Positions 975 to 19,597 of a stretch of DNA of 20,000 nt are shown in pieces. Position numbers and translations under genes: made by a program. The notes beneath the pieces are model-generated. The model did not search any database. It was not told where the DNA came from and saw nothing but the letters and a program-made list of their open reading frames with translations. Location of the stretch: contig NW_005201403.1 of the NCBI RefSeq assembly GCF_000372725.1, positions 384,031 through 404,030 of the forward strand, read 5' to 3'. The DNA is from Emiliania huxleyi CCMP1516. Lineage: Eukaryota. The first letter of the stretch is position 1. Every line of letters begins with the position of its first letter.

Positions 975-2161
975 ATGCCGCAGCACACCCTCTTCATCGC
1001 CGGCCCACGCCGCGCGCCCGCGGTGAGCGAGGCTGTCCGCGGATTGGCCGGCGCGCGCTCGGCAGACGACTGGCGCGTCGCCTTTGCGTGCGGCGAGGCC
1101 AGCGCTGCAGCGTGGCAGCCGGCGAGCGAGTGGCCGGCCGAGGCTGCGTCGTCGGCGGGGGTGGATGCGCGGGGTATGATCGCGAGGATCGCGCGCCTCC
1201 TCCAGCTCGTCCCCGCCGGCTCCTCGCTCGTGGTGAGGTGGGCCTTCGAGGGCGACGCGCCGACCGACGAGGCGCTCGGGTTGGGCGTGCACGCGGCGGT
1301 CAGCTTCTCCGAGGGCCTGGGCATCAAGGACTGCCGCACGCTGGTAGTCGAGTGGCTCGACGACGGCCGCGCCGCGGACTCGGCCGCGCTCGACGTGTGG
1401 GCCGACGTGCTGCGCGCGCGGAGGGTGGCAGTCGCTGCAGACGCACCCGAAGAGGAGGCGCCGGCGCAGTGTCACGCACCCGGCCGCCGCCCGCGTCGCA
1501 CGGTCTCTGACGCGGCTCCCGCTCCCCCCTCTCCTCCTCGCCGCAGGCCGCCCGGCTGATCTCGGGCGCGCCTCCGGACGGCTCCGCCCTGGGCGAGGGT
1601 TGCGTAGAGGCGCCAGGGCGAGGGCCAGGGAGAGGGTCGCGCAGAGGCGGAGGAGGCGCGGCCGCGCAGAGCCCGGTCGCGCCGCGGGCTGGTTCGGTTG
1701 CCGCCGCCGCCGCTTCAACGAGCAGCTCGTCCGGCGCACCAGGGCAGGCGCCAGGGCAGGCATCAGGGCTCGCCCTCGCTGCCGGTAGCGAGGGCGGCTT
1801 GCAGCACGGCGGAGGGAGCAGCGACGGGCGAGGGGCAAGCCCTCGCTCCCGGCTGCGCCGCGCCGGCAGCAAGGAGCGGCCGCAGGAGCGGCAGGCGGCG
1901 GCGGGCGCCTCGCAGCCGCAAGCCGCCGCCGCCGCCGCCGCCGCCGCGCCCGCGCCGGGCGGGCGCACGGGCGCGGGGCCGTGCTTGCAGCGGGGGCAGA
2001 GCCTGGTCCGCGGCCAGAGCCTCGTGCAGGGCTGCGGCGGGACGAGGGGCGAGGCATGCCCAGGACACGTCCAGGACACGTCCGAGACACGCCCCTTCGG
2101 CGGCGGCGGGACGAGGGGCCAGGCGGCGGCGCGGAGAGGCGGGGAAGGGGGAGGGGTGGGT
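975..2161 (+). CDS. Hypothetical multi-exon protein, 5' part (exon structure only partly resolved)
   Basis: ATG at 975 opens a GC3-rich frame (MPQHTLFIAGPRR...DVLRARRVAVAADAPEEE). Probable GC-AG introns at 1458-1546 and 2054-2122. No recognisable domain. It may be the same gene as 2481-3661 across the gap. Confidence 0.45.
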
Positions 2162-2249
2162 TGGATCAAATTCCAATACTTGTTTCTGGTAGGCCTTCTA
2201 TTTTTCTATTTTTTTATTCTAATCTCTCTTTTCTACTCCTTTTCGTAGC

Positions 2250-2349
2250 NNNNNNNNNNNNNNNNNNNNNNNNNNNNNNNNNNNNNNNNNNNNNNNNNNN
2301 NNNNNNNNNNNNNNNNNNNNNNNNNNNNNNNNNNNNNNNNNNNNNNNNN
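2250..2349. other. Assembly gap (100 N)
   Basis: Run of 100 N. Confidence 0.99.
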
Positions 2350-2480
2350 GGCGCTCTCGGAGGCACAGTCGTCGCCGCAGTAGGACTGGTAGTTGTAGTG
2401 GCTGTACGAGCTGGTGCTCGCCCCCCCCTTGGATACGAGCAGATCAGTCCGTGGTCGCTGGCCCTGTGAGACAGGTGGGT

Positions 2481-3661
2481 CGAGGAGGGGGTCGAGGAGG
2501 CGGGGGGGAGGCGAGGCCAGCGGCGAGTCGGCGCGGCGCGGTTGTCTCGCGCGAGAGGCTGGCGGGGCTGCTGCGCGACGCGGTGGAGGAGGAGGCGCGG
2601 CGGAGCGGGCAGGCGGGCGGCGTGGACGGCGCGGACGGCGGCGGCGGGGCTGGCGCCGCGGCAGCGGGCGGGTGGGCGACGCTGCCCCCGCCGCAAGACG
2701 TGCCGCGTGTGGGCGGTGCGCATGTGGCGTACGAGAACGAGGCCCAGGCAAAGGCGGTGGAGGCGCGGCTCCTCGTCGTCCTGCTCGCACCTCCCTCCCT
2801 CTCCTCTCCTCTCCTCCCTCTCCTCTCCTCTCCTCCCCCTCCCCCTCCTCGTCTCGCCAAACAGCGAGCGAGCGCAGCTTCTCGGCACTTTCCCGGCAGT
2901 TTCCCGGCACCTTCGCGGCACCTTTGCGGCACCTTCGACCGCAGGCGCGACTCAAGGCGCACACCCTCAAGCCAAAGGCTGAGCACGGCTCCATCCTCGC
3001 CCTGCTGCTGCCGGCGCTGTCCAGGACACGTCCATGACATGCCCGAGACTTGTCCACAGGCTCCATCCTCGCCCTGCTGCTGCCGGCGCTGCCGTGCGCA
3101 CGCGCCGGAGGGATGCCGCCCGAGCAAATCAGCCTGCAGCAGCCGCGCCGGACCGAGGCGCCGCCCGAGCAAGCGCCGCTTGGGCGGGGCGGTGCAAGCA
3201 GCAGCACGGGCGGTGCAAGCAGCAGCACGGGCGGTGCAAGCAGCAGCACGTGCGGCGCAGGCAGCGGCGTCGGCGCGGGCAGCGGCAGCGGCGTCAGCGC
3301 GGGCAGCGGCAGCGGCGTCGGCGGGTCATCGCCGCGCAACGACAGCTCCGAGCCGTCGGCAGCCCAGCCGGCCGTCCACGCCGACTTCGCCACGCACACC
3401 CTCGGCTTGGCGAGGAGGCTGGTGGCGGAGAAGGTGTGCGGCGGTCCCGCCGGAAGCGAGGAGCAGGGCGAGGCGGCGAGGTTGGCCGCCAGGCTGCAGA
3501 GCGCGCTTCACGCTCGCATGCGGCAGCGGCACACGCTGGGGGGGCAACGCCCGCCGCTTCGGAGCGCATACGATGCGGCCGAGGAGAGCCTCGCTGCCGT
3601 GTTTCGCGACGTGGTGCGAAAGGGGCTCGCAGCGCTCGAGTCGGAGCAGCACGCCCCGTGA
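2481..3661 (+). CDS. Hypothetical protein, 3' exons (..2762, 2945-2987, 3060-3661)
   Basis: Removing GC-AG introns 2763-2944 and 2988-3059 gives a continuous frame ...YENEAQAKAVE/ARLKAHTLKPKAEH/GSILALLLPALP...LAALESEQHAP*. Contains Gly/Ser low-complexity repeats. The 5' boundary is uncertain. Confidence 0.6.
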
Positions 3662-17485: not shown

Positions 17486-18214
17486 GCCGTGTGTGCATAA
17501 AGGACAACGCCCCCAAGAATTGTTCGCTTCGACACCCCTTCGACGCCAGCCCTTGCGCCAGCGTTCGCGCCAGTCGCCAGAGTCGCCTCCCAGCCGACTC
17601 TATGTATCGCTCTCATTGCTGCTGGCGCGCGCGCGGTCGTTTGCGTGCTACCCTTCCCCACGCTGCGCTACACGCTCACGGCTCCCGCCGCCTTCGTACA
17701 CATCTCTTCCACCCTCAGCGCTCGCCCCTCTCCCGCGACCGGGAAGGCGTTGCCCGCACCGGTGTGTGCTTTTTAGCACGCGCGAGGAGCCTCGCGCGGT
17801 GAGCTTTCGCAGGTCGCGCGAGGAGAGGCGAGAGGGGCCCGGGTGCCGGGACACAAAGAGCCACAAAACCGCCGAGATCCAAGTACCAAGAACGCACAAA
17901 AGTGGAAGAGTGCCCCCCTTAGGCTTAGGTCATTCACGATGGTGTGCGAAAGCCGAAACCGATAGGCGATACCGAAAGGCCGCTCAGTCTGCCCGCCACA
18001 GACAGTCTGGAGAGAGAGTCCCTGCACCCTGGTCTAGGCACAAGGGGCACACCCTCGTCTTTTTGAAGCGACAACAAGCGTCGGAGTGGGATGCGTGTAC
18101 TCTACCTGAGGCTCTGCTTCGATATGACCGCCTAAAGCCTCTACATTCCTATCTTCCTAGTACCAACGCGCGCCTACGGCTCTAGGCTACTGGACCTGCC
18201 GAGAGGCAGCACTG

Positions 18215-18319
18215 CCCGCCACTCCTCCTTTATCTTTCAGCGTCGGGCGAGCGCGGGCCGGGGGTCAGCGACCGTTCCGGCTTCCCAGCGCCGCCGTCAT
18301 CCGCGGAGTTTGGGGCGGG
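18215..18319 (-). promoter_or_regulatory. SECIS element (type II-like)
   Basis: On the minus strand: AUGA (18300-18297), 13 nt of helix II (CGGCGGCGCUGGG), AA (18283-18282), mini-helix GCCGG/CCGGC, CCGCGCUCGCC, then C-GA (GA at 18244-18243). Outer helix CCCGCC..ACUCC / GGAGU-GGCGGG. Begins about 45 nt after the stop codon. Confidence 0.8.
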
Positions 18320-18363
18320 TACTGCCACAACTACGAGGCGCACACACTGCCGCTGGCGCCTGC

Positions 18364-19597
18364 TCATGCGCCTGCAGACGGCTTCGCCGCCTCGGCCGCC
18401 TCGTGAAGCAGCGAGAGCCACTCGTCTGTCTCGCGCGCACCTGAGCCACTCGTCTGTCTCTCTCTCTGTTCTCTCTCTCTCTCTCTCTCTCTCTCTCTCT
18501 CTCTCTCTCTCTCTCTCTCTCTATCTGCGTGTGTGTGTGTGTGTGTGTGTGTGTGTGTGTGTGTGTGTGTGTGTGTGTGTGTGTGTGTGTGTGTACGTGT
18601 CTGCCTGTGCCTGCCTCTCTCTGCCACGCTTCTCTCTCTCTCTCTAGCGCGCGCCGCTGAAGGCGAGTGCGGGGGAGGCACCCGCCCGCAGCTCAAAGGT
18701 GGGGGCCGCGCGCACGCGCCGCCCGCCAGAGGTGGCTGCCTGTGCGTGGGGGTGCGGGGTGGGGGGGGTGGGGGGGGTGCCCACTAGATCCCGGCTAGAA
18801 TCTCGGCTACATCTCGGCGAATCTCACATTGGCGAGCTCGGCGGCGAGCTCGTCCGTCCCCTTGCCCGACAGGACGTACTCGTCTCCGTTGGGCACGCCC
18901 GCCTCCCGCGCCACGGCGGCGACCACCTGCCCGAGATGTGCCGAGATGTGCCGAGATGTGCCGAGATGTGCCGAGATGTGCCGAGATGTGCCGATGTGAC
19001 ACACACTCCCCCCTACCCTGCCTCGTGCGCTGCCCGCCGCACAGCACCCGCGCGTGTGTGCCGTGCGGCGCGCCCTGCGACGTGTGCAGACTGACGGGGC
19101 TGCTGCGGCGCGCCTCTTTGCGAGACACGTTCTCGCCCTCCTCGTAGCACGCGCGGTAGAGCCTGCCGATCACCGCGTCGCCCAGGCCGTGCCGGCCCGC
19201 CTGCGGGGGTTGGGCGTGGGCGTGAGAACGCAGGTGCCTGTTACACACACCTTGCACAGCTAGCGTCAATCGCCTCAAGTAGCAGCCGTGACGCGTGATG
19301 AGTATTTGGCCAGATCTTCCAGTTCGCGTAGGGAGCGCCCTCGGCACGCCCCATCCGCTTCATCGGCGCCGTCCATCCGTCTCCACCCCACCGCCGGCGG
19401 TGGTAGTCTGCATACAGCTCGCCGTCCGGCTTTGTGTGAGGATCGATCATGAATGGGCGGTAGTGCAGCCTGACGGTAATCGCTGGCGAGGTGCGCGCAA
19501 GGTGTTTAATCGCGTTGTCGAGCCGAACCTTGGCCAGCCAGCACCAGGGTCAGGCAACGTCGGTCCACACGTCGAGCTCGATCGCAACATCGGCCAT
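18364..19597 (-). CDS. DsbA/FrnE-family thioredoxin-fold oxidoreductase, selenoprotein (U16-P-W-C19), 5 exons, 223 aa
   Basis: Exons 19597-19274, 19200-19114, 18926-18828, 18739-18655 and 18440-18364 sum to 672 nt. MADVAIELDVWTDVA-TGA-PWCWLAK...YRPFMIDP...PNTHHASRLL...LYRACYEEGENVS...APTF...FSGAR matches the FrnE layout (D..CPWC, RPF.L.P, NT..AHRL, VP.F, SGAQ). The TGA is at 19552-19550. Confidence 0.88.
18457..18645. repeat. Compound (CT)n(GT)n microsatellite in DsbA intron 4
   Basis: Direct observation. Confidence 0.95.

Follow-up and report, generated by a model that had tools for sequence, protein, structure and literature searches.

Short Emiliania huxleyi introns with exon-junction duplications and periodic fillers as possible scars of staggered DNA-break repair

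We analysed a 20,000-nt stretch of the Emiliania huxleyi CCMP1516 genome (contig NW_005201403.1, positions 384,031 to 404,030; hereafter the window), in which short introns combine a direct copy of adjoining exon sequence with a filler of short repeats. Most of these introns are hosted by the gene for mitochondrial elongation factor G (EF-G; 4021..9536, minus strand), which holds 11 introns. An exon of this gene was 100% identical to mitochondrial EF-G of E. huxleyi CCMP1516, and the 11-intron model yielded a protein two substitutions apart from a transcript-type protein (P0005). Its donors (seven GT, three GC and one GA) agree with the published donor usage of the species, for which GC is given as 56-64% and GA as about 4% (PMC4028052; here and below, statements on cited papers refer to the parts of them available to us). 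RNA contigs from two studies had introns 1458-1546, 2988-3059, 4382-4487, 4572-4645, 4691-4811, 4929-5001, 5230-5379, 5455-5519 and 5688-5771 spliced out. A single RNA contig jumped from 5887 to about 8143, i.e. over an entire repeat array in EF-G, and an RNA contig joined 8638 to 9191 through 160 letters, as many as the two small exons have. A second mapping of RNA and DNA contigs supported introns 8639-8859, 8922-9026 and 9125-9191 and gave hints at 15726 and 18441. The reference E. huxleyi gene models P0003 and P0303 run into introns or contain an exon copy.

Intron 2988..3059 (plus strand, 72 nt, GC-AG) opens with a 32-nt perfect copy of the start of the next exon, followed by about 40 nt of GACACGT-type filler and the acceptor (copies 2987-3019 and 3059-3091, 33/33); it was spliced in RNA runs X11 and X13. 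The 65-nt GT-AG intron 5455..5519 (minus strand) has a 23-nt copy of the start of the next exon that differs only at +5, and GACACGT-type filler after it (5432-5455 and 5497-5520, 23/24). In the RNA-spliced, 84-nt GT-AG intron 5688..5771 (minus strand), which has ATCTCGG-type filler and an AAG acceptor, both splice sites fall within a 16-nt duplication spanning the spliced junction (5682-5697 and 5766-5781, 16/16). The array intron 5887..8142 (minus strand, 2256 nt) consists of a 17-nt AT-rich head, in which the GT donor lies, and 32 tandem 70-nt units that follow it, each made of an exon copy, GACACGT filler and an acceptor; the copy matches the next exon start at 24/25 positions. We read the array as one unit that was amplified later; variants are shared among its units. 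Doubled duplication-plus-filler units were also present in metagenome loci L008 and L036.

Two further cases are less complete. Candidate intron 2054..2122 (plus strand, 69 nt, GC-AG) has GACACGT filler followed by a 24-nt copy of the previous exon end (2030-2055 and 2099-2124, 24/26); it is in frame and stop-free, could be retained, and its skip was absent among the RNA joints listed. In intron 18441..18654 (minus strand, 214 nt, GC-AG) an expanded AG/AC microsatellite (18453-18594) interrupts the exon copy, sitting within the first copy and not between the copies (18415-18432 and 18443-18460, 18/18), and splicing is only hinted at by one RNA contig that leaves at 18441. The six duplications described so far, given by an earlier sequence-only reading, were present letter by letter, including the 24/25 match of the EF-G unit. 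That reading had called six introns clear cases; five show the layout it described, four of them spliced in RNA and the fifth (2054-2122) with unproven splicing, and the layout of 18441-18654 is a different one.

A duplication score anchored at the junction was calculated for 17 introns and candidates of the window and for 272 cross-paired controls. Four window introns scored 33, 22, 21 and 16.5, compared with a maximum of 10 among the controls. Three were borderline (8.5-9.5), with 3 of the 272 controls reaching 8-9, and the remaining 10 of the 17 were at chance, including the array intron, whose 24/25 copy starts 17 nt past the donor. The shorter or decayed cases proposed from the letters alone fared unevenly. 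The spliced, 106-nt intron 4382..4487 (minus strand; 11-nt copy of the previous exon end with one mismatch, score 9.5) and the 182-nt candidate 2763..2944 (plus strand; 11-periodic filler and a 9-nt decayed copy, score 8.5) are borderline, and RNA contigs of two studies end at 2767, within the latter. Chance level was found for the spliced, 74-nt intron 4572..4645 (minus strand; GACACGT filler, score 6.5), for the 221-nt intron 8639..8859 (minus strand; two filler families, score 4.5) and for the 119-nt candidate 15726..15844 (plus strand; no in-register duplication, score 2). The spliced, 73-nt intron 4929..5001 (minus strand) has CCGAGAT filler in the orientation opposite to that of 5688-5771, and its duplication is likewise at chance. 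Further introns with fillers were noted: the EF-G GA-AG intron 5230-5379 (minus strand), skipped by RNA contigs, has an 11-periodic filler from another family, and the further candidates 18778-18828 and 18928-19110 (minus strand) have CCGAGAT-type fillers in opposite orientations. The GT donor of 18778-18828 seems to be supplied by the filler itself.

Metagenome contigs were scanned for two filler units, which gave at least 120 loci, most from three data sets. Of 135 sites, 18 of low GC, 11 with short flanks and 1 duplicate were removed and 105 were used. A species check on one of about 100 loci gave 97% identity to a CCMP1516 protein over the part covered, and that protein model contains the exon copy. 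A flank duplication score of at least 12 was reached at 30 of the 105 sites; among controls it was reached in 1% (cross-pairs), 5% (same contig) and 4% (reverse complement). The GACACGT filler had been claimed to lie always on the sense strand. All five in the window do so, but at the metagenome sites YAG|G followed within 26 nt of the filler on the sense strand at 71 of 105 and on the other strand at 19 (on both at 9), with clear antisense-filler introns at L096, L103 and L012; the ATCTCGG family is present in both orientations inside EF-G itself. The exon after the nearest YAG starts with GC or GT in 57 of 70 cases. The same motif search of viral contigs returned no match. Within low-GC contigs of other organisms (L014, L015, L064, L115, L118), which were excluded from the counts, the motif lies inside longer tandem repeats.

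A scan without any filler motif covered 101 metagenome loci (190.8 kb) and the window, after removal of low-GC loci, seven non-haptophyte-looking loci and one duplicate locus. Its filters were strict, and some window cases were missed. We found 91 direct repeats, as against 1, 6 and 1 in shuffled sequences; at least one case occurred in 59 of the 102 sequences, and the architecture is thus recurrent far beyond the window, as had been proposed. A second scan (offsets 40-250) gave 124 direct repeats, 81 of them at 60-79 nt. Without the search motif, 102 were left, of which 64 were spaced 60-79 nt, and among the best-kept repeats (at least 95% identity over at least 18 nt) 35 of 45 were spaced 63-80. 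Clusters of at least four such introns close together were noted at L046 126-640, L097 260-870 and L052 1712-3560, and L020 has at 459-600 two duplications, nested or overlapping, whose fillers are AT-rich.

For a detailed set we took the 97 repeats at offsets 55-95. Their duplications measured 14-54 nt (mean 24, with a broad spread; shorter ones fall under the scan threshold), and the copies were 100% identical in 25 of the 97, with identity descending from there to the detection limit. The strongest signature, missed by the sequence-only reading, is a total that stays near 70 nt however long the duplication is. Total length was not predicted by duplication length (rho 0.04), so the filler varies to compensate (rho -0.66, a value that owes something to the range chosen). 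Lengths divisible by three were neither in excess nor lacking. G|GY...YAG stood exactly in register in 61 of 97 cases, as against 2-14 at six wrong offsets, which bears out the proposal that splice sites come partly from duplicated exon sequence. In these 61, the donor was given by the first bases of the copy in 40, only by an internal site in 16 and by the copy end in 5. Among the 36 out-of-register cases, inspection by eye revealed many in which the copy has an indel, the donor is GA or the acceptor is AAG or GAG.

The constant total length would also follow from a plain tandem duplication of about 70 exon bases containing an AG|GY site, if repeats later overwrote part of the first copy. Both splice sites lie inside the duplicate in 16 of the 97, and in intron 18441 a microsatellite has grown inside a copy, as this explanation would have it. 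However, the same filler families accompany 100% identical copies at unlinked loci, a GC-rich exon offers no source for the AT-rich fillers, and the filler of 2988-3059 bears no trace of the exon sequence that it should have replaced. We therefore regard this origin as very unlikely.

The fillers themselves are diverse. A period of 10-12 was found in 45 of 56 periodic fillers. The sequence-only reading had described one or two motifs, which did not hold up: the 97 fillers fall into families of 32, 7, 5, 3, 2, 2 and 2 members plus 44 singletons, some AT-rich and one telomere-like, with 53 of the 97 sharing a family with another locus. Several unit families appeared near-palindromic on inspection (GGACACGTCC, GGAAGGTTCC, TAATTA), and near 778 in L029 a duplication 140 nt apart encloses filler resembling telomeric repeat variants. 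Neighbouring spacers within an array were alike in 59 of 110 pairs as against 18% expected, a sign of local slippage. Local templating of the filler was considered and rejected, since the excess of direct matches was due to split duplications and neighbouring fillers, and inverted templates were at the null level.

Such fillers could have been written by a retroelement enzyme (non-LTR or Penelope) that nicks the target and copies a short RNA containing repeats, perhaps the 3' end of an intron, into DNA; they would then be truncated copies, i.e. introners without fixed ends. Variable target duplications are typical of target-primed reverse transcription, and the duplications here vary over 14-40 nt. 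The recurrence of filler families across loci, the sense bias (62 versus 10) and the fact that the filler stops 2-8 nt ahead of the acceptor at most sites are also in favour, as is the listing for this genome of three small introner families of unknown or LTR class (PMC12130899). Against this, the fillers lack a common end (among 68, the longest 3' stretch shared up to the AG was 26 nt, two repeat units), a poly-A/T tail was found in only 2 of 97, and the fillers comprise at least seven families and 44 singletons, some AT-rich. The absence of terminal inverted repeats claimed earlier was confirmed for the 97 (mean 2.1 nt, 1.9 nt in cross-pairs; at least 6 nt in only 2). The window has a very high-copy, transposon-like stretch at 10650-13100, with long ORFs (open reading frames) and, near 12230, an AT-rich tail. 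Two ORFs of this stretch had no Pfam match, hence none to a reverse transcriptase, and seven ORF pieces were assigned to no Pfam family. Taken together, we consider a retroelement origin unlikely, though not negligible.

The age of the positions was assessed by comparison with relatives, where uninterrupted ORFs or protein calls on contigs of 13-50 kb were taken as absence of an intron. In an Isochrysis-like sister clade (100/99 support in the tree; the label of P0006 reads Isochrysis galbana), ORFs cross the first four E. huxleyi EF-G intron positions and break at K372, in three clusters. A 345-residue ORF on a 13,162-nt contig, the size of one of the K372-broken contigs, runs unbroken from residue 381 to the end. 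The sister-family ortholog thus seems, from these reading frames, to have one intron as against 11 in the window, suggesting that most window positions are lineage-specific. More distant clusters (contigs up to 50 kb) were unbroken over the EF-G positions that they cover. In total, 10 of the 11 EF-G intron positions and the carnitine-acyltransferase position of L027 were absent from relatives, the latter being unbroken in a 651-residue relative on a 15-kb contig. Old positions shared with relatives had been named beforehand as what would speak against recent gain. They were found for one (5688-5771) of the four long-duplication positions that could be tested; the other three (5455, 5887 and L027) are lineage-specific. 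For most cases, insertion is the likely origin.

Slippage at old junctions, or an artefact of assembly, is largely refuted and in our view hardly credible. The window does contain an N gap whose flanks are bypassed by other contigs: at 2162-2472, both an RNA contig (X11) and a DNA contig (X8) pass over the gap and its AT-rich flanks and have 13 letters in their place, which may be an assembly error or a polymorphic insertion inside one gene. But DNA contigs from independent runs span the introns and RNA contigs skip them, the same layout recurs in independent metagenome assemblies and in the reference protein model P0303, and slippage alone cannot place the start of the next exon right behind the donor. 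DNA contigs X2 and X8 cross the EF-G introns from 4382 to 5519, and no intron-skipping joint was seen among the joints listed. A DNA joint at 9123-9191 (X7, X1) was examined as an intron-less allele and rejected; its sides are short, it lies beside a jump from 9093 to 8292, and it was read as a paralogue.

Other features of the window were recorded in passing. High-copy, degenerate 8-10-mer repeats at 14180-15120 are present in RNA contigs and hence transcribed. A 207-nt tandem duplication at 17081-17485 is polymorphic, as a contig of run X7 skips 200 nt, and a 21-nt coding repeat at 3187-3265 has 42 nt missing in RNA run X11.

We lean, with some reserve, towards the view that many of the roughly 70-base introns of E. 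huxleyi are scars of staggered DNA-break repair in which filler was captured and the products were filtered for spliceability. A staggered break in an exon would be filled in and so duplicate 14-40 bases; fill-in of staggered ends is an established source of small tandem duplications in mammalian cells (PMC8355091). Between the copies, with little microhomology, a filler of 30-60 bases would be inserted; its likely source is the 10-11-base repeat arrays that abound elsewhere in the genome. Survivors would need a G|GC, G|GT or G|GA donor from the upstream copy (less often from the filler) and an AG in register, and would also have to reach about 62-80 bases, the size that the spliceosome may remove here; the protein would then be unchanged. 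Tolerance of GC donors in a GC-rich genome would make many exon sites usable. Afterwards the intron copy would decay, the filler would slip or grow, and the direct repeats could amplify a unit into an array, as may have happened in EF-G. Microhomology with the filler at the junctions averaged 2.3 nt (1.1 nt simulated) and was at least 4 nt in 7 of 38 cases, as against 2%.

A bolder version invokes a dedicated repair activity, telomerase- or primase-like, that would write 10-11-base units on staggered ends and measure about 70 bases. Combined with the tolerance of GC donors, it would amount to an intron factory free of mobile elements that made most introns of the species and can rebuild old ones, and it would account for the GC donors and the intronic repeats together. 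We hold this to be unlikely, but worth keeping in mind.

Several observations weigh against break repair with captured filler. A stricter microhomology test with one consensus unit was weak (1.2 versus 0.67, p about 0.04), and two of the seven long microhomology cases partly overlap the filler. Filler homogeneity does not track duplication identity (rho 0.10); together with the mature-looking acceptors beside the filler, this is as compatible with an older intron end as with a captured one. The loci, which had been picked in genes, yielded no clear example that was unspliceable or intergenic. Among the joints listed, none of four DNA runs (two for each stretch) showed an allele without the intron. 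Finally, the intron 5688-5771, with its perfect 16/16 duplication, occupies the shared position (K372|V) that is broken in three sister-family clusters. Both of its splice sites come from the duplicate, suggesting that the present intron sequence is young and the site old or re-used, and it needs either a parallel gain at an AG|GT site or the rebuilding of an old intron. Parallel gain is plausible, and 3 of 19 AG|GY sites of the EF-G gene hold an intron; rebuilding on spliced RNA is plausible as well.

Rebuilding can be extended to the whole class if a break inside an intron lets the exon end be extended on spliced RNA or cDNA across the junction and then linked to what survives of the 3' part, repeats and acceptor included. 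This would account for a perfect duplication at an old position, for the predominance of next-exon-start copies abutting the donor (40 versus 5), and for acceptors of mature appearance and units of mixed filler next to a 33/33 copy. It does not fit the absence from relatives of three of the four long-duplication positions that could be tested, and it leaves unexplained the origin of the 10 extra introns and of the fillers, the antisense fillers and the duplicate-derived AAG acceptors. As a general account it thus appears quite improbable.

Staggered-break repair as an intron source has a precedent in Daphnia pulex, where direct repeats of 4-12 bp flank 33 introns, 48% of gains are parallel and the gains are polymorphic (PMC4202315; review PMC3443670). 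As there, the introns described here lie between direct repeats derived from the end of the adjoining exon (PMC4202315). Unlike there, the repeats are 14-40 nt long, the 10-11-periodic filler is shared between loci, the total is about 70 nt, and none was found polymorphic. Across taxa, direct repeats of 4-30 bp near intron borders have likewise been read as insertion scars (PMC11782384); this is a general survey of 213 introns, and its abstract does not mention filler families or a length peak. In the tandem genomic duplication (AGGT) model both splice sites arise from a duplicated AG|GY, as in 16 of our 97 cases, whereas here the intron is mostly foreign filler and in most cases the donor alone comes from the duplicate (PMC3443670). 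The EF-G array resembles the amphioxus 'Mirage' minisatellites in repeating an exon-intron boundary with its acceptor while normal splicing is kept, but its unit comes from a duplication-plus-filler intron (PMC3087553).

Introners that take the 5' splice site from a target-site duplication have been described (10.1101/2022.06.06.494994; PMC12130899; PMC9860276), and like them the present introns draw the donor from a duplicate and the acceptor from the insert. Those introners have duplications of 2-4 bp or none called, and copies that are alike; the present introns lack inverted repeats and a common end, and their duplications vary in length. For CCMP1516, families of 5, 6 and 45 members are listed, two near 67-70 nt and one with 10-bp terminal direct repeats (PMC12130899), and an earlier study initially recovered 79 elements (PMC9860276). 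Our introns were set apart from these families by table rows, not sequences, and overlap with two small families is possible. In the literature searched, we met no description of an architecture that combines long exon copies, 10-11-mer fillers and a peak at 70 nt; the 2013 genome paper may say more. That E. huxleyi genome paper, by Read et al., reportedly notes 10-11-bp repeats that are enriched in introns and strand-biased; it is not known to link them to exon duplications or intron birth.

The origin of new spliceosomal introns is an open question, and few traceable cases exist outside transposon-derived introners. The mechanism proposed here would supply new introns on a large scale and need no classical transposon, in a lineage where a gene with one intron in the sister family seems to have acquired 10 more. 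It also offers a cause for the GC donors and intronic repeats of this species, and it explains a known annotation failure, in which gene models (P0003, P0303) read into the exon copy. Searches for introners by intron-intron similarity would mostly miss this class of intron. In the gene-rich loci sampled, what appear to be readable birth scars occur about once per 3 kb; extrapolated to the genome, this would amount to thousands and would provide a large dated series for testing break-repair intron gain.

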